A DNA stretch of 64,000 bases from a virus: the IMG/VR virus record IMGVR_UViG_3300037560_000207, positions 32,001 through 96,000 of that record; one strand, given 5' to 3'. A program made the position numbers and the translations under genes. The notes under the pieces were generated by a model. The model saw nothing but the letters and a program-made list of their open reading frames with translations, ran no database searches and had not been told where the DNA came from. Below are positions 2,612-62,522 of the stretch, piece by piece; position 1 is the first letter of the stretch, and each line of letters opens with the position of its first letter.

Positions 2612-3686
2612 AAGGTATACCCCTTTCCTCTGCACATAATCGTGCATCAATTTCCCAACAATGCCGTACCGCCGCTCTTTGTCCCTTGGTCTTAACATCT
2701 TCCTCATATTTATGCAATCTAGCTATTCGGAAAAGATCAGCCAATCTATTAAAATATGTATGATTTTGAGCTACATATTCTACGCTAGCCCTAATCTTAT
2801 CAAAACGCTGTGATTGATCCTCTACAAGCCCAATTACTTTATTTATAAAATTAGTTGTACTAATAGCTATTTCACAATGCTTCCCAAGATATTTAGAAAT
2901 CATAGGATTATCAGATACTTGAATGCCACCACACAACGGAATCATGAATGATCTTTCATTGACACATGCTTGAAGCTTTACCTGTTTTACTGTATGAACA
3001 TTAAGACATACTTTAGCTGTTGCATAAACATGAGCTAATTTAACAATATCTAGTGGACCATTATAATTAAGACCAGCTAACTGCCAAATGTTATCACCGA
3101 ATACTTGATAAGAATAACCAAGTAAATCTAACCTCTTAAACAATGGTTCAATCAAATGTTTCATAATATCTTGTCGGTGATTAAAATTAGCAACCATCGC
3201 AACATCAGTTAATACTGAACATGTTGACGGCAATGCTTTAACCATATTCCCCGCCACTGGTAAATGCACAAGATTACTATTCTGCCAACCACGCATATAT
3301 TCAAACCATAAATTAGGCTCCAAACGAGTATGTACAATAACTTCTTTAATTTCTTTTATTAAATCTGGTTCATCATCATGAGCAAATTCATATGGTCCAT
3401 CTATTGTAGCATTAGCCGGATTCAAAGGTAAAGCATCAATAATTACCACCACCTGATTATCATTTATAACTTTAATAGGTAGTTGTCTTATACCATATCT
3501 TGAAAAAGTCATAATTAATTGAACTCCATATTTTTCAATTAATTCACGACAACCTAATTTAGTCTTGGGATTTCCAACATATACTTTCCAACCAAGATAT
3601 CGCAAAGCATCAACATAACCATGTTGTATCATTTTTGATGTCATCCCAGGACGCGGAATATATAGAGCACATTTATTCATCATCAT
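2583..3686 (-). CDS. Glycosyltransferase, CgeB/GT-B-like
   Basis: C-terminal AKVCLNVH...NERSFMIPLCGGIQVSD...HTYFNR resembles CgeB-type (Glyco_trans_1_2) proteins; adjacent to gmd. Confidence 0.6.
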   Translation of the reverse strand: MMMNKCALYIPRPGMTSKMIQHGYVDALRYLGWKVYVGNPKTKLGCRELIEKYGVQLIMTFSRYGIRQLPIKVINDNQVVVIIDALPLNPANATIDGPYEFAHDDEPDLIKEIKEVIVHTRLEPNLWFEYMRGWQNSNLVHLPVAGNMVKALPSTCSVLTDVAMVANFNHRQDIMKHLIEPLFKRLDLLGYSYQVFGDNIWQLAGLNYNGPLDIVKLAHVYATAKVCLNVHTVKQVKLQACVNERSFMIPLCGGIQVSDNPMISKYLGKHCEIAISTTNFINKVIGLVEDQSQRFDKIRASVEYVAQNHTYFNRLADLFRIARLHKYEEDVKTKGQRAAVRHCWEIDARLCAEERGIPYEQKVIGTS

Positions 3687-4599
3687 TCTCCCCGAAATCA
3701 GTATCTGCATCCATAATTATTGGTTCAACACTACCATCAGGAAACTCAATAGATTTACGAAATTCATTTGTAATATCTTCAGCAGCAATCTTTGTTAATT
3801 CAGCAAAACGCCCCTGCTTATCTCTTTCGTCTTGCGAATGTTGTAATTTGGTTACTAACTCCAAAAATGTCTGCTTGCCTCCACTAAGTTCTTCTAAACG
3901 ATCTTTACGAGTTGCGGCCAAACTACTATAAATTTTCTGTCGTTCTTTCACTAATGCATCATAACGATCATATGCTGCTTTAGTATATCTGTGTCTATCG
4001 TCTAATTGTCTCTGTTGTAAAATACGAAACTTAATAGTATCTTTGTTTTCTTCTTCTTTCTTAGGATTCTCGATAAACCATATCTGTAAATCAGCAATTT
4101 GTCTTTGTAATAAACGAGTTAAAATCAATTGTCTATCAATCAGAAGTCTATGTTTCAAAAAATCATCGATCTGCATAAATTCACTAATAACAATATCTTC
4201 AAATTGACAACATAGAAGACCAAAATCTTCTACATATACAGCCACTTCTTCTGATTCAAATTGTTTCTTAATAGTTATATATAAGTGTGTCTTTTTGAAT
4301 TGATCTCTAAACCAATGAGCTTTTTCACCATCAGAAAGTCCATGTGGTGGTAAGGTGAGCATTGGACCATCTAATACATCAATATTAATAGACTGACCAG
4401 GCTTCTTAATCACACCCATAGCACGACGGCGTCTACCAATAGTATCGAGAGTCCATTTGTATCCACATTCCTCTATCAACCGTTGCTGAATCTTTTTATC
4501 ACTTAGATCTTGTTTTATACAATCAACAAGAATTTTCAATGCTTTAGGATTAGAAGATAATCTCTGATTTTTAATTTCTGACACCATCTTCTCTCTCAC
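3673..4599 (-). CDS. N-terminal HTH plus coiled-coil protein; candidate terminase small subunit
   Basis: HTH-like N-terminus (LSDKKIQQRL...WTLDTIGRRRR), helical coiled-coil body, located upstream of terL in the same orientation. The TerS call is positional inference. Confidence 0.4.
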   Translation of the reverse strand: MREKMVSEIKNQRLSSNPKALKILVDCIKQDLSDKKIQQRLIEECGYKWTLDTIGRRRRAMGVIKKPGQSINIDVLDGPMLTLPPHGLSDGEKAHWFRDQFKKTHLYITIKKQFESEEVAVYVEDFGLLCCQFEDIVISEFMQIDDFLKHRLLIDRQLILTRLLQRQIADLQIWFIENPKKEEENKDTIKFRILQQRQLDDRHRYTKAAYDRYDALVKERQKIYSSLAATRKDRLEELSGGKQTFLELVTKLQHSQDERDKQGRFAELTKIAAEDITNEFRKSIEFPDGSVEPIIMDADTDFGENDDE

Positions 4600-7403: not shown

Positions 7404-8057
7404 ATGCCAAAATTAATTGATTTAACTAGGGAAAGATTTGGACGATTGATCGTTATCAAAAGAATGAATAATGATAAATATAGAAATTCTAAATGGTTAT
7501 GTAAATGTGATTGTGGAAAAGAAAAAATAATTTCTGGTCCTAGCCTTAGAAATAATAAAACTAAAAGTTGTGGATGTTTATATATAAAACATGGTCATAG
7601 TAGGGTTAATAAAATAACTGTAATCTATGAATCATAGTGTAATATGATCCAAAGATGTACTAATCCAAATAATAGAGATTATCATCTTTACGGTGGTAGA
7701 GGAATTACTATTTGTAAACGATGGATGAAATTTAAGAATTTTGATAAAGATATGGGAGAGCATCATGAAGGATATCAGATAGATCGAATAGATAATAATA
7801 AAGGATATTTTAAAGAAAATTGTCGGTGGACAACTTCTAAACAAAATAATAGAAACAGACGAGATAACCGTTTAATTACGTCTTTTGGAAAAACTCAAAC
7901 TTTAATAGAATGGTCAGAAGAATATAATATTCATTATAAAACTTTATTTTCTAGAATTTATAAACTTGAGTGGTCAATAGAAAGAGCCTTAATAACACCA
8001 GTCAAAAAATACAAAAAAATTAACTATAATGGAGACACATCTAATGGCATATATTAA
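7404..8057 (+). pseudogene. HNH-type endonuclease interrupted by an in-frame TAG at 7635-7637
   Basis: The two ORF halves are in the same frame: IYES*CNMIQRC. Paralogues at 55989 (IWANMIQRC) and 61911 (IWNQMIQRC) have Trp at this position (TGG to TAG). Confidence 0.75.
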
Positions 8058-15707: not shown

Positions 15708-16008
15708 TCTTCTAATCCTTTATTCGAAGATCACGAGCCCATCTGACGTTTGCCACCGTAGTAATCTATAATCCAAACACGCATTCCTTCTTTTATTTCA
15801 TTTAGTTTCATTATGTGGGTTCTTCTCCATGTTTCCTTTTGAATGGACCATAGTATGCATTCCATAGAATATTGCAATTATTAGAACACCATCCTGCTAA
15901 TACCTTTTTACCAAATCGTTTTAAAACATATCCAGTCCACATTTTGGCAGATTTTCCACATCTTACACATTTGGTTGTCTGAGTCATTTTGTATTCCTTA
16001 TCTTCTTT

Positions 16009-16293
16009 TTATAAATCAAAGTTCTTCTTTTCAGCATCCAAAGCAACTTGATAATCAATTAACAATTCACAAGTTAGTCGAATAGCATCTTCTTTTGCTT
16101 TAGATAATGAATATCTTATTGGCCCTTTTCTTACTTCCGCTGCATAATATCCCTTATGTTCACTTGTAGATACAATAGCAAACCATCTATAATTTGAATT
16201 AGAGGTAGGGTGTTGTAAATAACAATATAAGTTAATACTTCCAACCCGCGCACTAGCGTATTCGTCTGATCCTTTCCAATTAATTTTTCGCAT
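16009..16293 (-). CDS. Hypothetical protein, paralogue of 46276..46590
   Basis: RKGPIRYSLSKAKEDAIRLTCELLID vs RFGPIQKSIKAAQQDAQRLAVELLQD. Confidence 0.6.
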   Translation of the reverse strand: MRKINWKGSDEYASARVGSINLYCYLQHPTSNSNYRWFAIVSTSEHKGYYAAEVRKGPIRYSLSKAKEDAIRLTCELLIDYQVALDAEKKNFDL

Positions 16294-16558
16294 TATATTC
16301 CATCATTTCTTGCACTATCTCAACCACTTCCTTACCTAATGAATTAAGTATTTTCCCTTTATTCTTACACTTGTTACATTGGCCATCTAAGCCTCTTAAT
16401 TGAGAATAACCCCAGCAACAATCACATGGTTCAAAAGCCCCATTCGCAGCTTGTGATTTAAATTCTGATGGTAACCATCCACAACTATAACAGCGCGGTC
16501 GTAGAAAATATGAATCAAACTCTACTGCATAATCTTTACATTCAGGACATTGTATCAT
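16280..16558 (-). CDS. Small zinc-finger protein
   Basis: CPEC, CYSC, CDCC and CNKC pairs. Confidence 0.55.
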   Translation of the reverse strand: MIQCPECKDYAVEFDSYFLRPRCYSCGWLPSEFKSQAANGAFEPCDCCWGYSQLRGLDGQCNKCKNKGKILNSLGKEVVEIVQEMMEYNAKN

Positions 16559-16566
16559 TTTAGCTT

Positions 16567-16857
16567 CTACTTATTATACATTTGCCGTTCATATTCTGAT
16601 TCGGTAACATACGTTAAAACTTTACATTCGTCACCTGTTATCTTCATTTCTCCTCGGAAATATAGGCAATATCTCGGTGTTTTATAAAAAACAAATCCAT
16701 TATTATGATGTTCAATAGTCCCAGAAACAATCACTTGGGGGTGCTTTACGATACACTCATTCTTTTCAATATTTTGTGCAGAAGATAATATATAAGGCAC
16801 AGATACAAAAAATATCACAGTCAATATTACTGCAAAAAGATATATACGATTACTCAT
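16567..16857 (-). CDS. Small membrane-anchored protein
   Basis: ATG at 16857 after an AAGGAGG RBS; one N-terminal hydrophobic helix. Confidence 0.6.
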   Translation of the reverse strand: MSNRIYLFAVILTVIFFVSVPYILSSAQNIEKNECIVKHPQVIVSGTIEHHNNGFVFYKTPRYCLYFRGEMKITGDECKVLTYVTESEYERQMYNK

Positions 16858-16939
16858 TACATGTTTCCTCCTTTTAAATAGCAAGACACAAAAGTGTAGT
16901 GTGCGAAGCTCTTGGTAGCGATCCTCTGGTCGCTATCTT

Positions 16940-16968
16940 ATTATACGTCTATCTCTATCCCTTGTTCG
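16940..16968 (-). promoter_or_regulatory. Promoter CGAACAA-N14-CGTATAAT (minus-strand copy)
   Basis: Reverse complement reads tcgaacaa gggatagagataga cgtataat; drives the leftward gene run. Confidence 0.7.
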
Positions 16969-17076
16969 AATAAATCTCTGAATTTTTTTTGATATATGTT
17001 ATGAGACGTAAAAGAGAGGGGGAGAGATGAACTATACGAGGTTTATCCATCTCTTATTCCCCCTGTATAATTATCT

Positions 17077-17772
17077 TTAGAATCCTACACCAGCCCTAAT
17101 AGTAGGCGGTCGTCTGTAATTGATGGCTTCGATAAAGACAAGACGCCATTCTCTATATAGGGAATACACTTCTCTGTAGTATCTCCCTCCGGTGATTGAT
17201 TGATGATACATAGCTTTACAATAGTCATATGCACGCAATTGAGATTTGTTAAGTTTAGAAATATTGGCCTTTGTTCTCTCAAGAACCGTATGCCAGTGGA
17301 TAACTTTATCTCTAGCGGTATCCCACCATTCCTGCGGGCTTGGTTCTCCTTTGGGATGATTTGCTAGACCCTCAAAAAATGACGCAGTGTATTCGCACAG
17401 ATCACCAAATAATAAATCATCTGGATTAACATTTCCGAAACAGTCTTCTAGGATCATTTGAGTTTTATTAGTTGCGGATAAACGTTTCTTTGAATTCTTA
17501 ATAGCTGTTACAGATTTGAGAGGTTTACAAAAGGAAGCGGGCATTTCCCTTAGAACCCCCAATCCTCGACGCCTTCTTCCTATGGTACTTGTGTCCCATA
17601 GATGGCCGAAACTATCATACAATTTTTGACTGATGTCTTTATCTGATAAACCATTCTTAGACATGTGTTCAAGAGCAAGCATCGCTCCTTTGTTGTTACT
17701 TAAATTCTTTTTGTTCATAACCATTTCCTCCAAGCAAGCTAACCAAAGATTTATACGATCCATCGCTACCAC
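17077..17772 (-). CDS. HTH-domain protein sharing its N-terminal domain with 3673..4599
   Basis: LSDKDISQKLYDSFGHLWDTSTIGRRRRGLGV vs LSDKKIQQRLIEECGYKWTLDTIGRRRRAMGV. Confidence 0.65.
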   Translation of the reverse strand: MVAMDRINLWLACLEEMVMNKKNLSNNKGAMLALEHMSKNGLSDKDISQKLYDSFGHLWDTSTIGRRRRGLGVLREMPASFCKPLKSVTAIKNSKKRLSATNKTQMILEDCFGNVNPDDLLFGDLCEYTASFFEGLANHPKGEPSPQEWWDTARDKVIHWHTVLERTKANISKLNKSQLRAYDYCKAMYHQSITGGRYYREVYSLYREWRLVFIEAINYRRPPTIRAGVGF

Positions 17773-18207
17773 GTAAGAGCAAGACGCAAAAGTTAGGTAC
17801 CATAACTGTGCGAAGCTCTGAGAGCAGCCCTCTTGGCTGCTATCTTATGATACGTCTAACTCCTCCATTTATTGCAGGCCCTCCGATTTTTTTTGGCTTT
17901 TTTGTGGGGTAATAACGCGATTGATTTAGGGGTTGAAAAAGGGGTGTACCCCAAAAGGTGGGTGTTAAGGAGAGAAAAAGTGTACATGAAAAGTTGTAGG
18001 TAATGTGAAAAATGAGCCGGGTATGCCTAACCCCCCGCACGGTTATTGGACCCAGATGAGTTATCGGACCGTTTATAAAACGGGCCGCGCCCCTGTTTTG
18101 TCCTATAAACAGATACCCACGCCTACAAAGTTATCGGACTATTCTTGCTCGACTAGCAAGGAAAGTTATCGGACATAAAAAAGATTTTATTTTACTATGT
18201 TATAGGC

Positions 18208-18236
18208 TTGCATTCTCGGGGGCGGTATGCTACAAT
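18208..18236 (+). promoter_or_regulatory. Sigma70-type promoter (TTGCAT-N17-TACAAT with extended -10 TG)
   Basis: Near-consensus boxes with 17-nt spacing, followed by an RBS and small rightward ORFs; plausible early promoter. Confidence 0.7.
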
Positions 18237-18886
18237 ACAGGTAGAAAGAGAGGCATGGAAACGATGAATTACCAGACTCTAATCACAAATGCAATGGGTT
18301 GGCTAGCCGATGATCCTATCAGAATTGCATGGATTATCGGAATCGTTGTGGTGCTCGGAGCGGTAAACGGTATTTATCGGTCGCTCGGACATTGTAGGAA
18401 TATCGGACATAGTGGGCGACGTATCCTATAACGATAGGGGTAATAACGATGTTTTGGTATCGGATTATCTGGTGTGCGGTGGTAATCACAGTTATCGGTA
18501 TGTGGTAGGTTATCGGAGGGACAAAATGACCATCATTATCGGATGTGTGGTTTTAGTGATTATAGGAGCCCTTGCGATATGGGGCGTGTTTAACGACATT
18601 ACCGGACTATAACAGGAGCGGTAACTATGTTCGGAAACGCTACAATCGACATACCAGGAAACGGAGTTATCGGACCAACACACATGGAAGGATTATCGGA
18701 CCAACTTGCGTTGTGTATGGGACGTATCGCAGCGATGACGTTACCGGATGCCTTCATTACAGTTATACTTGAAGGCGGAATATTGGTAGTTATCGGATGT
18801 GATAAGTTCAACGGCGAGATTGTTATCAGACGTTGTAGTGGTTATCGGGAATATGCCAATAACATAGTAGGAGGGCCTATAATATA

Positions 18887-19234
18887 ATGGGACCACTAGA
18901 AGTTATAGGACCGTATGCTGGTACTGTAATAACTACCAGAAAGACGGACGTTCCCGCGACCAATAACCCACCCAATGGTACTTCTATACTTATCGGACTA
19001 CTCATGCTCCCGTTGGGGTTATTAGCCCTTGTATTTATAGGACTATACGTGTGGGCATACCGATTTCCTTTGTGTCTTATTGGACTAATCGTTATCGGAC
19101 TATGGGCGTGTGCCCATTTTGGGTCCAATAAACCACTAATAAGGTGGCATAGAAAGAACAGATTATCAGACGAGCAACGTGCTAGAATCGAGCGCAGATT
19201 ATCAGACATCGAACGACAGCCGGGGCTGCAATAG
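18887..19234 (+). CDS. Small membrane protein (two TM helices)
   Basis: GGAGG RBS; two hydrophobic segments. Confidence 0.55.
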   Translation: MGPLEVIGPYAGTVITTRKTDVPATNNPPNGTSILIGLLMLPLGLLALVFIGLYVWAYRFPLCLIGLIVIGLWACAHFGSNKPLIRWHRKNRLSDEQRARIERRLSDIERQPGLQ

Positions 19235-19290
19235 TCTGATAATAGTAAAGGCTAGTTTAGTGTGTCGAAGTCATACATAGGGGAATTACG

Positions 19291-19647
19291 ATGAGAAACG
19301 TAGTTATAGGACAGACCGGACGGATTCCATTATCAGACGATGCGATCATGCGTAAACTGTCGCATAGACGAACGGTCCGATATCAGTACGCAAAGGCAAA
19401 GCACGGGTGGATAGCATGGGTTTGCGGACCTTTTCATTCCCGGACCTACGGAGCGTGCGCGTTTGGGACCGATAAAAGAAGGAGTAGAGTCTCGCTTCAA
19501 AGGCGGTTGGCTAATAATTATCGGTATCTAGGTCTTATGCTACACTCGGACGTGGACGATGCAGATAACGTGGGCAACGTGGACGATAGGTTATTGGACG
19601 TGGGCGTGGTCAATAGGGCGATAACTGAAGGCGTTTGTCGCCTGTAG
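19291..19647 (+). CDS. Hypothetical protein
   Basis: RBS-preceded ORF in the rightward run. Confidence 0.5.
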   Translation: MRNVVIGQTGRIPLSDDAIMRKLSHRRTVRYQYAKAKHGWIAWVCGPFHSRTYGACAFGTDKRRSRVSLQRRLANNYRYLGLMLHSDVDDADNVGNVDDRLLDVGVVNRAITEGVCRL

Positions 19648-19868
19648 ATTATTGGACACAAAACAGGAGAAAACTTATGGGACTAACGGTGAAAGAATTA
19701 AGAACCGCTTTAAGGGAGTTAGCAGACGATTGCCAAGTTATATTATCGGTCGAGGATGATAATCCACCAGTACCGATAATCCACGAGACGGAGGCAATCG
19801 GCGCAATTGTCGGTCCTGGGGTAATCAAGATTCTCGGAACAATGCACTACCGCTAATATCTAGGAATC

Positions 19869-19891
19869 GGCCCGATTTTATCGGGCCTTTT
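19869..19891 (+). terminator. Rho-independent terminator
   Basis: GGCCCGAT-ttt-ATCGGGCC followed by TTTT, just after ORF 19635..19856. Confidence 0.7.
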
Positions 19892-20048
19892 CCATGCGCA
19901 TCTCGTAACATTATCGGACCATCACTTTTGCGTCTTGCTTTCATTATCGGACAGGACTGCATTATAGGTCTTGTCTGGAAACTAACTTACCCTGTCTGTA
20001 ATATTGTGGATGTTATTCGACAGTAGTGATAATATCGTTATTTTTATA

Positions 20049-20077
20049 GGAACAAAAAATGGTTATCGGAGTATAAT
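20049..20077 (+). promoter_or_regulatory. Variant promoter GGAACAA-N14-AGTATAAT
   Basis: Same spacing as the CGAACAA promoters; upstream of the HNH-AP2 gene. Confidence 0.5.
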
Positions 20078-20082
20078 AAGTT

Positions 20083-20616
20083 ATGGGAACTACCTACGCA
20101 CTACCAGTTATTGGACGAAACTACGAGTTATCGGCTATCGTGGACGTGGAGGATTATCGGACACTTAAGTTATGGGAATATAGGTGGTATAGAGTTATCG
20201 GAACCAGCGGTATCACTTATGCTCAGACCAATATAAACGGTAAAATGATTACCCTCCATCGCTTAATTATGGGAACTACGGATCGGCCAAGGTCCGTATG
20301 TGTAGATCATATTGATAGAAACGGACTTAATTGTTCTCGGACTAATATGCGTATAACCGATAATACAGGCAATCAAAGAAACGCTCGTAAACATTTATCG
20401 GCCAATCCCACAAGTTCCTATAAAGGTGTCCGACATATGGGTCCAAAATATCGGACCAAACCTTGGCGCGCAGAAATTACATTATCGGATAGCCAACCAC
20501 AACACATTGGAACTTATCGGACTCAAGAAGACGCAGCAAAGGCTTATAATAAAGCGGCCATAAAATTATTTGGACCTATGGCACGATTGAATGTTATTAG
20601 ACCCAAATCCACCTAA
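20083..20616 (+). CDS. HNH endonuclease with C-terminal AP2 domain
   Basis: LHRLIM...VDHIDRNGLNCSRTNMR...SSYKGV...WRAEI...IGTYRTQEDAAKAYNKAAIKLFGPMARLN. Confidence 0.9.
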   Translation: MGTTYALPVIGRNYELSAIVDVEDYRTLKLWEYRWYRVIGTSGITYAQTNINGKMITLHRLIMGTTDRPRSVCVDHIDRNGLNCSRTNMRITDNTGNQRNARKHLSANPTSSYKGVRHMGPKYRTKPWRAEITLSDSQPQHIGTYRTQEDAAKAYNKAAIKLFGPMARLNVIRPKST

Positions 20617-21172
20617 AAAACATATCGGACTGTGTTTTTGTCCAGTAATATCGTTATTCTTACCTAAAAAATACGGTTATTTTCAACCTAGCATAATATA
20701 TCCTATCGGACTTTAGTAAACGGACGTAATTATTATCGGCTAGGACGTTATTTGCCGATAAAAACACGATTGGCGCGCCAAAAACACCTAAAAAAAACCT
20801 ATATAATGTTTGACCTATTGTATAACTACCCCTATAGTATAGTGTAGGATAAGAAACCATAGGGTTATAAGACAGTGTGATAACGGGGAAGCGCCCTACC
20901 GGAAGCGGAGTCTCAAATCCGATAGTCTTGGGAACGTCCCACCGAGATTGTGGGTGAGCGTCCGACAGAGTGTTTGCTCGGGGCGCGAGCCCCGGTATAG
21001 GACGTTTCTCCGTTATCATTCCGACGTGACTATCATAGTCACCGATAATAAGTGATCTACGCAATGTAGGTCCGAATAATGATTCCGAGATTCACTACTT
21101 GCTCGTCCTATAATCGGGACGGAGTAGTCTCGGTATGGGACGGGCAATAACTCTTCTTGCAAGGAGAATTGT

Positions 21173-21520
21173 ATGCCGTCTAGTTCCACAATTGCCGAGT
21201 CTACCACAGCTAGTGGTACGGAATTCGGGTCCGCTGAATTCATCGAGAATGCTGTCTCTTATGCGGAACACAGGGCGCTCGTCAACGCCGCGTCCAAGTA
21301 CGATAACTTGGATGATGCACAAGCCGCGCTTTCTACCGTTTGGGCAGCGCTCGTTGAGCAATCCCAACAGGGTGGAGGGTTTACGCCGTCTGTCGAGTTG
21401 GGGTTCGGGTCTGATAATGCCTCGCAGATCGCGTTTGCACTTATCGGACAACGGAGTCGAGTCACCGATACCCGTAAGGCTATGGTAGCCGTCGGTAAGG
21501 CGAATACGCCGAGCACGTAG
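21173..21520 (+). CDS. Hypothetical Ala/Ser-rich protein
   Basis: Strong AAGGAGA RBS before the ATG; other frames here lack an RBS. Confidence 0.55.
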   Translation: MPSSSTIAESTTASGTEFGSAEFIENAVSYAEHRALVNAASKYDNLDDAQAALSTVWAALVEQSQQGGGFTPSVELGFGSDNASQIAFALIGQRSRVTDTRKAMVAVGKANTPST

Positions 21521-21524
21521 TATC

Positions 21525-22900
21525 TATCGCACCGCGTCTCTAACGTCCAGTAACTCCGGTGGATGATGCCGTTAGGGACGTGGACCGATGGGTATTCTAA
21601 ATCGCTTAGTGGGTGGCACCCATATTGACGGTCAATGATCGTCTAACATAGGCACGCTGTTTGTGTCAGCGATTCCCATAACCCTTTATCACAGCGGGGA
21701 GTCCGATAAGCATCGGGTATACCCGGACGGGGTTGGTCTAGTCCGATAGTCCGCCGTAGTAGGGTCTGTCGAACGTGCAGGATGTGCGCTTCGGGTCTGA
21801 ACCGGAGAATTACGGTTATCGGTCGAAGCCAATCTTAGAAGCGACAAAACGTAGGATTCGAGAATACGAATCCAGTCTACGCCGATAATATGGGCGAGAT
21901 AAGTAACGGTCTTGTCTGCGCAATTCCCTATATGGCGCGCACGGTTCTGGTTCAGCGCCAGATAGCGCTCTGTCTAGGTATAATTGTGTTGACTATCGAA
22001 CAAGACGTTATGGGAATACGTCCGTGGTTCGGTGTAGGCAAGTTAAATCGTCGTGGGATAGGCATATCCTAATGACGGGTTTTTTTGTCCCTGTCGATAA
22101 ACTTTTCTATGCAGATGGTCTAGTTTATTATAGCTGACAATACGCTGGGTCGGATAATAGAAAACGGCGCGGAATACACCTGTCGGGATTGGCATTGAAA
22201 CAGTAAAACGCAAACGGGTAGAATGCGTGTAGCTGTTTCCTTGTAGCCGAACGACACGACGCGGCGGCAGTAGTAAAGCTGGAGTAAACCGACTGTCCGG
22301 TCCAGTGGCGCGCTAGCCCGTCGTTATAAAGTACACAAGAAACAGTCCTATCTGTGATAAGGGTTCGTTTATTCGGATTCCGGTACACTAACTGACAGTA
22401 AAGTAACGGTAGGGCTTTGTACATAAAAAGCAGAGGTAGGGCCTACGGGCCGGGAAGTTAAATCGTATTCTCCATAGAAGAGTCGATAAAGAACATTGTT
22501 CGAGCCGTGTCGATCTTTAATAATTGGAGAATAGATTTAACGGCAAACTTGGTGGGTTAGTTTGTCAACTTTTGGAGTGTTCCCGAGAAGTTTGGATCAC
22601 CATTCGTCAGAGGAACGGGGAGCCTGCCGTACCAGTTTTGGTGGAAATTCTGGTACACTTTTTACGATGACATATCACTACGGACTGCAATCTAGCCAAT
22701 GGGAATAACGTGTTATATATTAGCCAAATCGACGAATGAGGTATAGAGCGCCGTCTGAGGGTTTGGGTTTAACCTGATCGCCTATAATAGGCGGCTCATC
22801 TATACTTTGTCGTCGGGCGTACTTAATAGAAATCGTGCGCACGGTATCTATTGGGGTATATGGCGCGCCTTGAGGGGTGAAATATATATAGAAGCCACAC
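21525..22900 (+). other. Long hairpin-rich, largely non-coding region (candidate structured ncRNA or cis-element)
   Basis: No RBS-led ORF; many perfect or near-perfect stems (see findings). Strand inferred from the terminator. Confidence 0.45.
22049..22086 (+). terminator. Rho-independent terminator
   Basis: CGTC..GGGATA-ggca-TATCCT..GACG stem followed by a T7 run. Confidence 0.6.
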
Positions 22901-23168
22901 TTGGCGTTGCAGCCTGTAGTGATGTGTCATTTTTTAGGGAAATCTGTAAAAGGAAAAATAAGAATGAAAGAGCGTGAACTTGCATGTTGGATTGTCGGAA
23001 GTATAATGGGTTTCACCGCCCTTATGATAGGGGGGATAGGATACTATACCGCAAAGCTTGCAACCATTAAATATGAGGCGTGGATTCAAATCTCCCACGA
23101 GGTAATGAAAGCAATCACCAGTCTAACAGACTAAGAAGAATAGTGATGGAATTCCGATCCACTCTTCT

Positions 23169-23411
23169 TTGTTGTCATACTATCTCAAAAGGGGCTGCAA
23201 AATGATTCAAAAGGGAAGTACTGCAATCGTAAGAACCAGGAACGCGATCTACTCTCCGTGTCAAATTGTTCTCCTGCATGAGAACAGTGTCGCTGTGGAG
23301 TATCTTGCGGGCATGAAGAAAGACAGCAAGACAGGGAAGATGGTTGAGGATCGTCGAGTCGATACGATTCCTCGCAATCAGATTGTCAGCATGTCTGAAA
23401 GACCTTTTTAA
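23169..23411 (+). CDS. Small protein, paralogue of 53588..53824
   Basis: MIQKGSTAIVRTRNAIYSPCQIV...AGMKKDSKTGKM vs MIQKSSTVILRTVNAIYSPCKIV...AGMKKDRKTGKM. Confidence 0.7.
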   Translation: MLSYYLKRGCKMIQKGSTAIVRTRNAIYSPCQIVLLHENSVAVEYLAGMKKDSKTGKMVEDRRVDTIPRNQIVSMSERPF

Positions 23412-23796
23412 GGAGGAAAAAATGATCATTTTTCACGGTGGATGTAGTTGTGGGGTCGTTTGGAGAATAAGTCTTAATGAATATGAAATTGAATCTGGTC
23501 ACCCGGAAAGACCAAATATAATCACGGCTGGTTATTTCAGGTGGTGTCCAATTCTAAAGCAATGGACACTAATTGTATCTCACGATCGGTCGTTTACTTT
23601 TGACTTCACACAAAAAGCGTGGGCGGGTTTGTGGATGGAAAGAGAAAAGATCACGGAACACGCTTCTAACCCTAAGCAACAATAAAAATCAAATCTTTGG
23701 GTGGTTGGCTTTTAACTCTATGCGACAAGTAATACTGTGGCAAGCCGTAAAGGATAAGCCTGGAAATCCACTCTAAGCTAATTTCATCCCTTTTAT

Positions 23797-23893
23797 GAAG
23801 GTGGTAGTTTAATTGGTAAAGCAGCCTATATCCTGATATAATCCTATCGGATCAGGGTGTAAGCAATCGCGGGTTCGAGTCCCGTCCACCTTC
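23797..23893 (+). ncRNA. tRNA-like RNA with an elongated anticodon arm
   Basis: Acceptor AAGGTGG/CCACCTT (plus G-1:C73), D arm GTTT/AAGC, T arm GCGGG-TTCGAGT-CCCGT. The anticodon arm is a ~14-bp helix with a 13-nt loop. Confidence 0.7.
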
Positions 23894-24147
23894 TTCAAGA
23901 ATTCTGGTACATTTTTCTTCATAGGTCGGTATCTCAAAAGGAGAACTATAATGAAACGAATAAATATTAAAGGGACTTGTGGGGTGTGTGGTGAGGAACG
24001 TGATACGTTTGTTTCTGCCAGTAATGTCGATGCTGGCCCGTGGACGTGTGAGAATTGTGCCAAAATCGTAGGTCAATACCTTGCAATGACTGGATACGTT
24101 CTGGTTCTTCCTGTGCCAAATCCCGATACTGTATATTAATAGTCTAA

Positions 24148-24220
24148 GGGGACATAGCTCAATCGGTAGAGTAATCGACTCATAATCGATCGGTTAAGGG
24201 TTCAAGTCCCTTTGTCCCCA
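24148..24220 (+). tRNA. tRNA with CAT anticodon (elongator Met or lysidine Ile2; not initiator)
   Basis: GGGGACA/TGTCCCC acceptor, ATCGA-CTCATAA-TCGAT anticodon arm, AAGGG-TTCAAGT-CCCTT T arm; G1:C72 paired; no encoded CCA. Confidence 0.92.
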
Positions 24221-25206
24221 ATATTATAAAGATATTACCCTCCTTTCCTGGTCATGCTGTCAGATTACGATTTGACAGTGTGGCTAAATGCTCTTTGGTT
24301 TGTAAATCAGAGGGTGTCTAGCTGCACTATCTAAATGTAGTGGGGTAGTATGGGGGTTTCACACTACATCTTGTATAAAATAGCCAGACACAAAATAGGA
24401 GAATAACCACGTGATTAACATGAGACACGATCAATCGGTCCAAATAACGTTCGATAACGGACAATCATTTCTATTGTGGTTTATGCAAGACGGTACAAAT
24501 TCTGTAGCAGTTGAGGATGAATCTGGTAAGGAAATAGGAAGACTTGGTGCTAATGTTCTCATAGAATTCCTATATCTTAAATCTTTGGAAAGTAAAATAT
24601 GAATATAACCAAACAAGATTTGGCAGATCAAAGGAAATTGATCCAAGAGGATTTGAGGCTCATTTTGATTGATATTGATTGTGGGACATGGTATAGGGTC
24701 AATCACGTCATTATTGATAGGATCAAAATCCTTGAGGATAAACTTGATGAATTCACATCCGCCGATAATGATTTCTTCACCTAATTATCACCCCAATAAA
24801 ACAACATCGTCCCAAAAATAGACTATCCGGGGTTCCCTAATAAGTATTCGGGGTTTTCTATGAATAGTCCGGGTGTGTCTCTATACCAGGTGTAAATCAA
24901 TAAAATCCTGCGTTTTTTGTAGGCGCTAGCGACTTAGTCTTATTGATTAGGGGGATGAGTAATGTTAGTGGTAATAGGTAAAATTGAAGTTAAACCCAGT
25001 TTAGAACTCGATGGCACCCTCGTCGAGTTTAATGTTATGTACGATGAAACAAAGATTGGTAGTATAGGCCGATTCCCTTACGATATATGGCTGCTCAAAC
25101 TGGTGGAAAACGTATGGATTTATGAAAATTGTTTGAACGAGATATGGGAACAGTTCCGCAACCATGTAAGCTCGTCTGTCTGCTCGGCATATTAACAGCA
25201 TTCTTT

Positions 25207-25225
25207 ACCCCGTAAACGGGGTTTT
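25207..25225 (+). terminator. Rho-independent terminator
   Basis: ACCCCG-taaa-CGGGGT plus TTT after ORF 24962..25195. Confidence 0.6.
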
Positions 25226-25612
25226 GTCGTAAATACAAATTTTGTAGGCGCGCGCCGCATTATCTAGCGCCTCTATAGGTTGAAAGGAGAAAGAGATGAC
25301 TGTAAGAGAACTAATAGAAACATTAGAAACGTACAATCCAGACTATACAGTTATTGTTGAAACTATCGTCAATAACGTGAATATTGACCACGTAAGGTGT
25401 GGTATCCTGTTCTCGGACACTCACGGAGTAGTAATCTACCCCAAAGAAAAATAAGTTTCGCAGGCTGCAAAACCAAAGTCAAATCTAATCTCGTTTACCG
25501 TGTATATACGATTGTGGGGCTTAGTGGTGACGGGTGGGATAAAGTGGGTAACAAGGCGCTAGGTACAAAAATTGTACCCTGTTTATTATTTTTTGTAGGC
25601 TAATGCCGTGGG

Positions 25613-26482
25613 TTGACGATAAATATCGTCTCATTTTGTAAGAAGATACTAGAAATGATAGAGCACCTTCTCCTAACAGAAAGAAATGGTCTTTTACCGC
25701 ACCCAATAACATATTCACAAGTAAACCCATCAACACATCCAATTTCTGCGCAAGAATTACAAATCCACGGATTCAAAAAAATCCAATACTATTGGCTCCA
25801 CATTCCAACTGGACTAATAAATGCTTCAATTTTGTGGGTGAGAACTGAGCAATATGCCAATCTCCTCATCGAATTATGGAACAATATCGGCGGGCTCACA
25901 TGGAAATATTCATTAGTCCCGTTCAGTGTAGGGGATAACTCAGACCATAAAAAAGACATACCGGAGGAAAAAAGAATGAAAATTGAAAATTGGGCTGTCA
26001 TATTTCCCCCATCAGTAAGCCCATATACACCACCGGAATTATTAAAACAATCGTTACAGGGCGAAATCTTTGGACATCCCAAATTCAATGATGGAAAACG
26101 TATCACAACATCGTCAATCGTCGGGAAAAACAGTCGAAACGAAATCTTAACACACAGTGGTAGTATCTACGAATTAGGTCAAATTGATCCTGCCTACGAA
26201 GCACAATTTCCAGATGCAAAAAACAAGCTGTTAAGCAGTTTGCCTCTACCACACTGTCTTGCAGAAAGTACAAAAACTGTTTTCAAACGTGTTATAAATA
26301 TGGGTTATAAAGTCTACAAGTTACAAAACACATCTGGGTTTTCGAGTGAGAAACCTAGCATAATAATCCAAAAAGGCGACCCAGGATGGGAAATTGCATA
26401 CAATAAGTGGTTGAGAGGCGAAAATCCTACTGATTCAGAACTTTGGAAGTACGGAATATTTGCTTGTACTAAAAGGAAGTAA
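25613..26482 (+). CDS. Hypothetical protein (true start probably further downstream)
   Basis: Long ORF; central MKIENW...GEIFGHPKFNDGKRITTSSIV...THSGSIYELG resembles a small conserved phage domain. Confidence 0.55.
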   Translation: MTINIVSFCKKILEMIEHLLLTERNGLLPHPITYSQVNPSTHPISAQELQIHGFKKIQYYWLHIPTGLINASILWVRTEQYANLLIELWNNIGGLTWKYSLVPFSVGDNSDHKKDIPEEKRMKIENWAVIFPPSVSPYTPPELLKQSLQGEIFGHPKFNDGKRITTSSIVGKNSRNEILTHSGSIYELGQIDPAYEAQFPDAKNKLLSSLPLPHCLAESTKTVFKRVINMGYKVYKLQNTSGFSSEKPSIIIQKGDPGWEIAYNKWLRGENPTDSELWKYGIFACTKRK

Positions 26483-27504: not shown

Positions 27505-28086
27505 CTCACTAGAAATTAAAATGATAATCAAAATAATTGTGCTAACTCTAGTAATTTGGATATTTTTGGAGCTTGGAGTAGTAAGACCAAGAATGAAGCC
27601 AATCTACGCATTCCTACTCATTCTAACTATATTTTCATCACTCTTATGTCTCATACAATGGAGATGAAATGATAACCGAAGTGTTTATACCAGCGGTAAA
27701 TTGGACCAGGCACCTAGTTGATGCAATTAGAAACGCTAAACCTGGGGAAACTACCAGGATCATAGTCCGTAGCCACGAAGAAAGGGAGCTAGGCTTACGG
27801 GCACACGCTCGAATGTGTCCCGAAAAAAACGTGGAGTTCGTTATACAATAGGTGTATTTCGCTTAACACTGCATCCTGATCGTCGGCTCCGAACCAGTTT
27901 GGCCTGTATATATGTTTTCAGTATACCCAAATGTCCCGTTGATATGGAAGACACGTATGCGAGATACCCGTGCTTCCTTGCTTAAAAATTGGTGTATATC
28001 TTTCTCGTAATCCCTACACTAACGTTTTTAAGATGTTAACGGGGCATCTGGATGTACTGAATGCAAGACACAAAAGGAGAATATAG

Positions 28087-28296
28087 ATGAAAACGACAGT
28101 GAGTAATATTCAAGTGGGTGTTGGAGATGAAATCGCTATTTATGATAAGGCGTATAGAATTACATCAATAAAAGATGCCATCAAAGGTATAATGGTAATT
28201 GAAGATGGACATGTTGTAGAATCATCAACCATATACACGTTAGACCTGAGATTACCGGGATGGAGGTTTATACAATACTATATTAATCCGCAATAA
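28087..28296 (+). CDS. Small protein, paralogue of 28605..28826
   Basis: MKTTV...GDEIAIYDKAYRI...LDLRLPGW; preceded by GCAAGACACAAAAGGAG. Confidence 0.65.
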   Translation: MKTTVSNIQVGVGDEIAIYDKAYRITSIKDAIKGIMVIEDGHVVESSTIYTLDLRLPGWRFIQYYINPQ

Positions 28297-28604
28297 ACAA
28301 AACTGGGATTGGAACGGTGGGGTTTTGATCCACTCTTTTTTAGTAAAATTCACAGGGGAAAAATATGTTAGAATTTCGCAAAACAATGGATGATCGCGCA
28401 ATGGATGTCTACCGATGCGAACCACACGCTAAACAACAACATATTGGAAGTATTCAATGGCATCCAGATAAAGTCCCCAGATTTGTCTGGTGTGTAGGTA
28501 CTGCACTTGAAGTAACACTAGGGGAAATGAAAGAAATAATCGAAGCTTTTAAGACATACAGATAGACAAAAACTGAGTTGCAAGACACAAAAAGGAGAGC
28601 GTAG

Positions 28605-31953: not shown

Positions 31954-32349
31954 ATGCACACCAAACTCAAAGGGAATATAGCAGAGGCATCGACAGTATT
32001 AGCTCTTATGTCTTGCGGATGCAAAGTTTTCAGAGAACTAGGAGACCTGTCTAGAATAGATTTGATAGCAGATTTTAATGGTAAGATTTATACTATTCAG
32101 GTTAAAGGGATAACACCAAAAAACGGTGTATTAAACATCAATCTCGTTAAAAGTGGACCAAATTACAAATACCGCTACGGGATTGGTGATTGTGATTTAT
32201 TTGCTATCTGCAACCTTGAAACAAAAGAAGTCGCACTAGTTCCTCTAAAAACCTTGCTAATAAATAGAAAACAAGTCATGCTGAGAATTACTGAGACGAA
32301 AAATAATCAAAAATGCGGCATTCGTTCGATACTCAGAAACTACAAGTAA
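31954..32349 (+). CDS. PD-(D/E)XK endonuclease (group I intron-associated type)
   Basis: KGNIAE...RIDLIADFNG...IQVKG...DLFAI pattern. Confidence 0.75.
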   Translation: MHTKLKGNIAEASTVLALMSCGCKVFRELGDLSRIDLIADFNGKIYTIQVKGITPKNGVLNINLVKSGPNYKYRYGIGDCDLFAICNLETKEVALVPLKTLLINRKQVMLRITETKNNQKCGIRSILRNYK

Positions 32350-55988: not shown

Positions 55989-56627
55989 GTGTTATCTTTA
56001 TTCGAACAACGATTTGGGAAACTGATAGCCATTTGGCCACAGGGAAAGAGTAAGCATAGAAAGATTCTATGGCTATGTCAATGTGATTGTGGCAATGAAG
56101 TAATTATAGGAGGTAGCTCACTTAAAAGTGGCCATACTAGAAGTTGTGGATGTCTGAAAATAGAAAAAATAAAACAACGATCAACCAAACATGGATATGG
56201 AAAATCTCATGTTTATCGAATATGGGCTAATATGATTCAAAGATGCACTAATCCAAATCGCAGTCAATATCAATATTACGGAGGTCGTAATATCAAAGTT
56301 TGTAAACGGTGGTCAAAGTTTAAAAACTTTCTAAAAGATATGGGTGAGGTGCCCCCTGGGCACCAAATTGATCGAATAAACAATAATGGTAATTATTGTA
56401 AATCCAATTGTCGTTGGGTAACTTCAAAACAACAACAAAGAAATAAACAAAACAACAGACCAATAACCTATAATGGTAGAACGCAACTTTTGATTGAATG
56501 GGCAGAAGAAACAGGTATTGATAGGGAAACTATTGCTGCGAGATTGAAAAGAGGTTGGTCTATCGAAAAAGCATTAATAACACCAATACAAAAACATAAA
56601 GTATACAAACTAAAAGATCGTGTCTAA
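55989..56627 (+). CDS. HNH-type endonuclease
   Basis: WLCQCDCGN...SCGC...MIQRC...YGGRNIKVCKRW...QIDRINNNGNYCKSNCRW. Confidence 0.85.
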   Translation: MLSLFEQRFGKLIAIWPQGKSKHRKILWLCQCDCGNEVIIGGSSLKSGHTRSCGCLKIEKIKQRSTKHGYGKSHVYRIWANMIQRCTNPNRSQYQYYGGRNIKVCKRWSKFKNFLKDMGEVPPGHQIDRINNNGNYCKSNCRWVTSKQQQRNKQNNRPITYNGRTQLLIEWAEETGIDRETIAARLKRGWSIEKALITPIQKHKVYKLKDRV

Positions 56628-61910: not shown

Positions 61911-62522
61911 ATGTCGGGATTTATTAATTTAATAGGGAAAAGATTTGGTAAATTGATTGTTATTCGAAGAATGAATAATAATAAAAGCAATAAAATAACA
62001 TGGCTATGTAAATGTGATTGTGGTAATAAAAAAATAATTTGTGGTGGGGACTTAAAAAACGGACGCACTCAAAGTTGTAGATGCCTACTTATAACACATA
62101 GTCTTAGCGACCATAACTTATATCCTATATGGAACCAAATGATACAAAGATGTACAAATATTAATGATAAATATTATAATATTTATGGTGGCCGAGGAAT
62201 CAATGTTTGTAAGAAATGGAGAGAATTCCCGAGTTTTCTTAGAGATATGGGAAGTGGGTGGAAACCCGGATTGACTCTTGAACGAACTAATAATAAACTA
62301 GGATATTTCAAAGATAATTGCGAATGGGCAACTCAGAAACAACAACAGAGAAATAGGCGAGACAATCATTTGGAAACTTATAATACTAAAACACAATGCC
62401 TAGCAGCCTGGGAGGAAGAAACCGGTATTAACCAAAGTACTATTCGATATAGACTCAAGGTTGGTTGGTCAATAGAAAAAGCCTTAACAACACCAGTTCA
62501 AAAAAGGAGAAAAAAGAAATGA
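61911..62522 (+). CDS. HNH-type endonuclease
   Basis: WLCKCDCGN...MIQRC...YGGRGINVCKKW...TLERTNNKLGYFKDNCEW. Confidence 0.85.
   Translation: MSGFINLIGKRFGKLIVIRRMNNNKSNKITWLCKCDCGNKKIICGGDLKNGRTQSCRCLLITHSLSDHNLYPIWNQMIQRCTNINDKYYNIYGGRGINVCKKWREFPSFLRDMGSGWKPGLTLERTNNKLGYFKDNCEWATQKQQQRNRRDNHLETYNTKTQCLAAWEEETGINQSTIRYRLKVGWSIEKALTTPVQKRRKKK

Follow-up and report, generated by a model that had tools for sequence, protein, structure and literature searches.

A polar array of words resembling the dif XerC arm runs up to a dif-like core in a large uncultured phage

The locus described here belongs to an uncultured phage with a genome of 181,360 bp and a GC content of about 0.37, a virus record that was assembled as a circle and whose ends overlap by 127 bp (IMG/VR record IMGVR_UViG_3300037560_000207). 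The window analyzed was a stretch of 64,000 nucleotides, positions 32,001 to 96,000 of that record, and the positions given below are those of the window unless the genome is named. Where the genes make their main divergent change of orientation, which is also the site of the cumulative GC-skew minimum, a conserved non-coding block is followed by six small early open reading frames (ORFs). Within and between these ORFs a short word, RTTATYRGAC, is repeated dozens of times on the plus strand, in an array that runs up to a single site resembling dif, the recombination site of the bacterial XerC and XerD enzymes, and words of the opposite orientation are found beyond it (Table 1). The original prediction, made from the letters of the window alone, had placed the start of the array where gene orientation flips, and the divergent switch was indeed found there.

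Table 1. Features of the locus, with positions in the window. Sites are half-sites of the RTTATYRGAC type.
Feature	Position	Strand	Remarks
Conserved non-coding block	17880-18043		T-run, GGGGTGTACCCC, GAGTGTACAyGAAAAGTTGTAGG, GAGCC..TATGCCTAAaCCCCC, in the same order in five related phages; flanked by a leftward promoter (about 17840-17880) and by the first two half-sites of the field, which it immediately precedes
Polar field of about 38 XerC-arm-type half-sites RTTATYRGAC	18044-20629	all +	Within and between six small early ORFs
Putative sigma-70 promoter P1 of the early operon, TTGCAT-17-TACAAT	18208-18236	+	Read by eye, below the promoter-scan threshold
Small hydrophobic ORF, 58 aa	18255-18431	+	3 sites; homologue in G003
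ORF, 86 aa	18627-18887	+	4 sites
ORF, 115 aa, predicted membrane protein	18887-19234	+	7 sites; phrog_15123, weak
ORF, 118 aa	19291-19647	+	3 sites; the most strongly conserved of the field's proteins (36-62% identity, 20 relatives)
ORF, 59 aa	19677-19856	+	Followed by a terminator-like hairpin, 19869-19887
HNH-AP2 homing-endonuclease gene	20083-20616	+	7 sites in three frames; PHROG 99, E 1.5e-29
Complete dif-like core	20686-20713	-	The plus-strand field ends here
Zone of inverted half-sites (GTCCGATAA type on +)	20797-21750	-	20918, 21106, 21410, 21702, 21742 and weaker ones
Conserved sigma-70 promoter TTGACC-17-TATAGT	20810-20838	+	Conserved spacer GTATAACTA
Conserved leader, about 330 nt	20839-21172	+	Hairpin ACTACTTG..GTCC[TATAATC]GGGAC..AGTAGT, built of motif-like halves
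Conserved ORF, 115 aa, directly downstream of the core	21173-21520	+	39-59% identity in 15 relatives

The prediction of about 23 exact copies of TATCGGA in 2.65 kb, nearly all on the plus strand, was borne out by the count, with 23 plus-strand copies within 18062-20710 and a single minus-strand copy in that range, at 19376. The whole window contains 36 copies against 8.2 +/- 3.3 expected from shuffled sequences, and none of the shuffles reached 36. With the degenerate core RTTATYRGAC, 39 plus-strand sites were counted between 18044 and 20704, roughly one every 70 bp, including the same-strand variants TTATAGGAC, TTATCAGAC and TTATTGGAC. Their spacing is irregular (10-262 bp). The T preceding TAT is present in 84% of the sites, the middle C in 78%, the G after it in 89% and the C following GGA in 82%, while no conservation was detected farther out. 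A k-mer and strand-skew scan of the 181-kb genome placed 19 of the 20 plus-strand copies of TTATCGGA in one 5-kb bin. Away from the array, the frequencies of the word and of its variants matched the Markov expectation, with neither enrichment nor depletion; the original prediction had called the motif sparse in the rest of the window. This distribution led to the rejection of a genome-wide word of the kind of Chi or of the FtsK-orienting polar sequences (KOPS).

The half-sites are read as VIG, IIG or LIG, as LSD and as YRT, that is, in three frames, the HNH-AP2 gene being one of those that carry them; about two thirds are located inside ORFs and 14 are intergenic. Of the 240 Ile-Gly pairs encoded outside the array only 25 use ATCGGA, and of the 22 Leu-Ser-Asp triplets only one uses TTATCGGAC. 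This codon usage shows that selection acts at the nucleotide level. The original prediction had likewise placed the selection on the DNA rather than on the protein, and the three frames, the intergenic sites and the codon choice all agree with it.

RTTATCGGAC is the complement of ACGTCCGATAA, the XerC-binding arm of dif in many bacterial phyla. The dif site of Anaeromyxobacter is ACGTCCGATAA-TATGGA-TTATGGTAACT, and the XerC arm is GTCCGATAA or GGTCCGATAA in Myxococcus and GTCCTATAA in Syntrophus (PMC2731167). The pattern GTCCKATAA-N6-TTATG was searched in samples from the phyla of five metagenome-assembled genomes, with the reversed pattern as a control. It was detected, mostly once per genome, in 46 of 61 genomes sampled from the phylum of a Thermodesulfobacteriota assembly, in 18 of 61 for Myxococcota, in 16 of 41 for Acidobacteriota including the unpublished G159 (15 of 40 without it), in 16 of 41 from the phylum of a Planctomycetaceae assembly and in 3 of 41 from that of a Cryomorphaceae assembly (Bacteroidota); the control pattern was found in 0-5 genomes per sample. 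Two host sites read AACGTCCGATAA TGTATA TTATGTAAACT and TACGTCCTATAA TGCATA TTATGTAAACT. The phage arm, GTCCGATA(A/G), agrees with the host arm GTCCGATAA, and the variants seen in the field (TTATAGGAC and the others) mirror natural variants of the XerC arm of dif. Bacterial genomes scanned for paired words showed single chance hits and coding tandem repeats and no such arrays, and no extra half-sites above chance were found flanking two host dif sites. Readings of the word as a DnaA box or as an IHF, CsrA, primase or nick site were discarded, because they are at odds with its 3' half or because GGA is not invariant. When the literature was queried with nothing but the word, the hits were primers. 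As a separate observation, a scan with the XerC arm of the E. coli type detected an 83-kb viral contig with 11 same-strand copies of TTCAGTTATGCGC (L376:1213-5675), and tandem palindromic GCGCATAA-N7-TTATGCGC units were seen at L390:1289-1454 and L349:234-303; these repeats may be analogues in another dif dialect.

The core at the end of the array is the only site of its type in the 181-kb genome. On the plus strand it reads ACCTAGCATAA-TATATC-CTATCGGACTT; on the minus strand it is composed of an XerC-type arm, GTCCGATAG (in full AAGTCCGATAG), the 6-bp spacer GATATA and a TTATG-type, XerD-like arm, TTATGCTAGGT. Agreement with the common host dif GTCCGATAAGATATATTATG extends to 19 of 20 positions. 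The arrangement of inverted arms of about 11 bp set 6-8 bp apart is present in this core and is the same in 14 related lineages.

These lineages were recovered in two ways. No close relative was found in the phage collection by DNA or protein, and viral contigs were scanned for two words 8-38 bp apart, which revealed polar arrays of the same kind in other large contigs. Four of them (G001, G002, G003 and G005; GC 0.40-0.50) are syntenic relatives, whose small ORFs within the field are 35-61% identical to those of this phage. When metagenomes were scanned with the best-conserved protein of the field, 27 further loci were obtained. The layout of the field, with conserved arms, was found in 14 distinct lineages of what is a family of uncultured phages of 160-180 kb, with 26-69 sites per phage. 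The original prediction depended on related phages having an enriched motif at the syntenic position, and the same polar field is present there. Among the relatives some half-sites lie at conserved codons and others are specific to one lineage, so that the field is both inherited and renewed. The equivalent of P1 is kept in position, with a conserved hairpin-plus-site just before it; in the five phages 4-7 half-sites with conserved spacing stand upstream of this promoter (the first 4 in the present field), and the members of the first pair are 18 bp apart in all five.

When the 14 lineages were aligned on the core and counted in 250-bp bins, plus-strand sites amounted to 2-4.6 per 250 bp from about -2750 (-4250 in some lineages) to the core, reached their peak just before it and were gone within 250 bp beyond it, and minus-strand sites were found only from +250 to +1250 past the core. 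As the sites of the field point one way and the inverted ones follow the core, the outer (GGAC) ends face the core on both sides. The core is kept at the same place in the four syntenic relatives and in 17 of the 27 metagenome loci. The arms of the relatives' cores are GACT(A/C)GC(A/G)TAA and TTAYMGGAC, and 12 different spacers occur, always of 6 bp. Fixed arms combined with freely varying spacers are characteristic of a recombination core that pairs with a second copy of itself.

Smaller versions of the array were detected in unrelated phages. The word of G004, G007 and G008, TTATCGGACGT, is the exact complement of the 11-bp host arm, and in these other phages both orientations of the word occur, in intergenic clusters. 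In G004, G006, G007 and G009 the cluster contains one core with an arm, a 6-bp spacer and TTATG, and here too the outer (GGAC) ends face the core from both sides. Additionally, G006 carries a block (L063:3000-3300), duplicated at both ends of the contig, in which the 29-bp unit cacGTTATCGGACGTsgrtGGTCAGAGGT is repeated six times in tandem and the 21-bp unit CATCAACCCACCCTCTGAAAA then five times.

The sole tyrosine recombinase of the genome, of 305 aa, is encoded outside the window, at genome positions 111620-112537. Its NCBIfam scores are 225 bits for XerD and 210 bits for XerC, both under the equivalog cut-offs, and all six catalytic residues, R-K-H-R-H-Y, are present in the alignment with E. 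coli XerD (1A0P). Orthologues with 53-60% identity were found in G001, G003 and G005. Its identity to the XerC and XerD of two phyla is 29-37% alike, so that the enzyme gives no hint of the host. XerC and XerD are themselves present in sampled bacteria of two phyla that use the same dif dialect. No tyrosine recombinase was found in G004 (100% complete) or G006 (92%), and the sites of these two phages must therefore be read by a host enzyme.

Other candidate readers were considered. A protein shared with G004, G006, G007, G008 and G009 was sought in the phage genome, and only a MazZ-like nucleotide hydrolase was in common; it was rejected as a reader because it is not a DNA binder. This protein has a MazZ-like dATP/dGTP diphosphohydrolase N-terminal domain (PF18909; genome 132747-133181, L124:16747-17181) and is common to G004, G006 and G007; the genome has no PurZ, hence no Z-genome. 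The small proteins adjoining the arrays of G006 and G007 have no relative in this phage, and neither FtsK nor FtsK-gamma was found in its genome. Among the proteins that the original prediction had put forward for binding assays are those encoded on the minus strand at 17077-17772 and 3673-4599. They do share an N-terminal segment resembling a helix-turn-helix (46% identity over 63 aa, including TIGRRRR). The relatives have a conserved protein of the 3673 type (about 300-330 aa), encoded 14-22 kb away from the field, whereas the 17077 copy was detected in this phage alone; neither has a Pfam or PHROGs match. The phage Xer recombinase and the host XerC and XerD are better candidates. As for proteins of the locus itself that might act as reader or activator, the 118-aa protein has no Pfam or PHROG family and was modelled as alpha-beta-beta-beta-alpha (pLDDT 72.6) with a weak match to a double-stranded RNA-binding domain (Foldseek E 0.26), and the 115-aa protein downstream of the core had no Pfam, PHROG or fold match.

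The reading that we favour, which in our judgement is about evenly poised between holding and failing, is that the array may be a field of half-sites for an Xer-family tyrosine recombinase within a dif-type recombination locus. Each RTTATCGGAC would be an XerC-type arm of dif without its partner arm, about 38 of them running to one complete core. The phage Xer recombinase, the host XerC and XerD, or both, would read them, with monomers occupying the half-sites. The core would recombine between two phage copies, resulting in multimer resolution or genome cyclisation, and the field, as an accessory or antenna region of unusual size, would gather recombinase monomers beside the core and give them their orientation. 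What the sequences establish is the identity of the word, the layout of the locus with its conservation, and the intactness of the phage recombinase. The function of the field could be this one, that of a sponge for XerC or that of a one-way roadblock.

Several points weigh against this interpretation. The XerD-like arm, TTATGCTAGTC or TTACGCGAGTC, is conserved in the phage family, but it agrees with the host TTATGTAAACT or TTATGTTAAAT only in TTATG and 1-2 further bases, and arm positions 10-11, GT in the host dif, are relaxed in the phage field. The recombinase gene is not adjacent to the core, lying 59 kb from it. To our knowledge, Xer accessory regions never contain more than a few sites, none of them running through genes, and the accessory role is therefore an extrapolation. 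Nothing was found to suggest that the phage lives as a plasmid or a lysogen, for which multimers would have to be resolved. Moreover, XerC of E. coli binds an isolated half-site poorly, with a dissociation constant (KD) above 100 nM (PMC2800217).

Compared with known systems, the locus shares with dif and with the attP sites of integrative mobile elements exploiting Xer (IMEX), such as CTXphi, VGJphi and TLCphi (PMC5357621; PMC9226527), a core in which 6 bp separate an 11-bp XerC-type arm from an arm of the TTATG type. The phage XerC arm is identical to host dif arms, and the degeneracy of its XerD arm has parallels in several IMEX sites. It differs in the 26-69 extra polar XerC-type half-sites that flank one core, many of them inside genes, and in its spacers, which vary by lineage and are mostly unlike those of host dif sites; no integrated copy was seen. 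IMEX have no recombinase of their own, as is also the case for some array-bearing phages, whereas this family has its own Xer. Membership of the present phage in the IMEX was rejected on account of this enzyme, of the spacers and of the phage genes found on both sides of the core in all of the relatives' contigs; the Xer-less G004 and G006 could be IMEX-like.

The plasmid sites cer and psi also combine an Xer core with flanking DNA that shapes the synapse and makes the reaction intramolecular, and the resolution of plasmid multimers by XerCD at these sites is an analogue of the role proposed for the phage. Their accessory DNA, however, is some 180 bp long and is occupied by PepA together with ArgR or ArcA, whereas kilobases of half-sites extend on both sides here. 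The TnpI sites of Tn4430 and Tn5401 consist of a tyrosine-recombinase core of inverted repeats with two direct copies of a motif beside it that control the reaction; those accessory copies are two, outside coding genes, and here there are dozens. In phage P1, Cre and loxP provide a phage tyrosine recombinase and a single site for the cyclisation and multimer resolution of a large genome, but loxP is a bare 34 bp with no half-site field and Cre is not of the Xer type. No description was found in the literature of dozens of polar recombinase half-sites running through genes and converging on a dif-like core.

Among the other explanations, a sponge for XerC is rather unlikely. The field would titrate the host XerC or the recombinase of a competitor, offering thousands of half-sites as the phage replicates, and the core would be incidental or a remnant. 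The effect would be to block chromosome-dimer resolution and division of the host, or the integration and excision of rival elements that exploit dif. The copy number does seem selected, with the 26-69 sites per phage written into coding sequence to the detriment of the proteins; the word equals the host arm, and the early-region location fits host takeover. A sponge, however, would not need the strict polarity and the complete core at the end of the field, which are conserved in 14 lineages; binding to isolated XerC half-sites is weak in E. coli (PMC2800217), and the phage family carries its own apparently active recombinase.

Just as unlikely, in our estimate, is a one-way roadblock or trap, in which monomers bound to half-sites would be polar barriers to FtsK/SpoIIIE or to complexes of the SMC type, such that these motors enter toward the core and not out, or are halted or unloaded. 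A lone half-site occupied by XerD or Cre is 3-5 times more effective at stopping FtsK when the motor meets its outer face than when it meets its inner face (PMC2800217), and in this family, as in the unrelated phages, it is the outer faces that are turned to the core from either side. With KOPS and the stoppage of FtsK the locus shares polar words that converge on a dif-type site and, on this reading, a half-site-bound recombinase as a directional block (PMC2800217); KOPS, however, are G-rich, are read by FtsK-gamma and extend over megabases, whereas here the word is a recombinase arm and the array covers about 4 kb. The likeness to KOPS suggested in the original prediction thus stands for the geometry and not for a genome-wide strand skew, which is missing. 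In B. subtilis, SMC is reported to be unloaded where XerD occupies isolated sites (Karaboja and colleagues, 2021). With a similarly low probability, then, the field may be a new DNA-traffic device, a one-way gate around the core that stops, traps or unloads host motors (FtsK/SpoIIIE, or SMC-type complexes including those of defence), with the recombinase serving as a polar roadblock and not for recombination. Against this, XerC alone did not stop FtsK, the polarity rule of half-sites was measured for E. coli proteins only (PMC2800217), the phage encodes neither FtsK nor FtsK-gamma, and no target translocase was identified.

Control of the early operon, in the manner of stoperators, is clearly less probable. 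A protein, an Xer homologue or another, would gate or silence the operon from asymmetric sites in an orientation-dependent way, and the sites do point along the reading direction of the early genes and flank P1, where the conserved hairpin-plus-site also lies. The stoperators of Cluster A mycobacteriophages are likewise asymmetric protein sites aligned with transcription, some of them inside genes, but they number 23-36 genome-wide, are read by the immunity repressor and have no recombination core. The density here is far above that of any stoperator set and the sites are confined to 2.7 kb; no repressor was found, and the dif-like core and the host dif arm would be left unexplained.

The functions named in the original prediction, a packaging (pac) array, origin iterons, a Chi-like word protecting against nucleases, or an injection signal unrelated to Xer, retain little probability. 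The divergent strand switch, the GC-skew minimum and the adjoining conserved non-coding block would suit such functions. The contigs of several large relatives (L287, L294, L300 and L292, 98-166 kb) end 0.6-2.5 kb downstream of the core, which may reflect a common assembly break or real genome ends, and phage T5 has a repeat-rich injection-stop region. Yet the identity with the XerC arm and the conserved core would be unexpected under any of these functions. Iterons and pac repeats were rejected because of the irregular spacing, the two thirds of sites within ORFs and the absence of an adjacent initiator or terminase gene. Chi is opposed by the use of both orientations in the unrelated phages and by a word that has no genome-wide skew, and the injection-stop region of T5 (iss) is non-coding and made of other repeat words. 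What stands of the predicted multi-site direction signal is a polar, multi-site signal for protein recognition; pac, origin iterons, Chi and KOPS are not supported, the word being the XerC arm and the field ending at a dif-like core. Very improbable, finally, is a signal on the early transcripts (UUAUCGGAC) for an RNA-binding protein or nuclease, since, although the sites are on the sense strand of early genes and the best-conserved protein of the field has the weak model noted above, 4-7 sites at conserved positions stand upstream of the promoter, other phages have intergenic sites in both orientations, pointing to a signal read on DNA and not on RNA, and the word matches a recombinase arm of double-stranded DNA.

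Around the locus, no HNH-AP2 gene was hit at the equivalent place in the relatives, and Rfam gave only transfer RNAs (tRNAs) in 16000-26000, with no family for the leader. Downstream, at 21521-23790, there is an ORF-poor, GC-rich stretch (0.44-0.48) with no Rfam match, in whose counterpart the contigs of several relatives stop, followed by a tRNA-like gene (23798-23893) with a 37-nt insertion in the anticodon region, which scored 39.8 bits with the Rfam tRNA model, was not called by ARAGORN and could be an intron-bearing or degenerate tRNA.

Elsewhere in the genome, about ten paralogues of a protein of about 210 aa belonging to no Pfam family were observed, three in the window (55989-56627, 61911-62522 and 7644-8057) and seven more, for example at genome positions 27841-28458, 102319-102960 and 130949-131590; they also occur in L100, L084 and G007, and could represent a novel group of mobile or homing genes. 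The DnaE-type DNA polymerase (PHROG 405) is encoded by two ORFs about 5 kb apart (genome 134320-136791 and 141881-144496; L124, L125), the second of which contains a stretch matching an HNH endonuclease, which suggests that the gene was split or invaded. An ORF of 590 aa on the minus strand (genome 22377-24149; L122:2377-4149) has HNH and DNA-binding matches and a C-terminal Mom-like DNA-modification domain, and lies near genes for a glycosyltransferase, a nucleotide-sugar epimerase, a deoxyribosyltransferase-like protein and ThiF; together they hint at modified DNA.

The Xer/dif system is among the best studied systems of site-specific recombination, and the mobile elements known to hijack it do so with a single site. 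Since the array recurs across a phage family and, in smaller form, in unrelated phages that depend on the host enzyme, it is a selected, reusable design. The word may be useful as a host-range marker for hosts with the GTCCGATAA dif arm, and from the role of the field one would learn in what way large phages exploit or subvert the chromosome-resolution machinery of their hosts.

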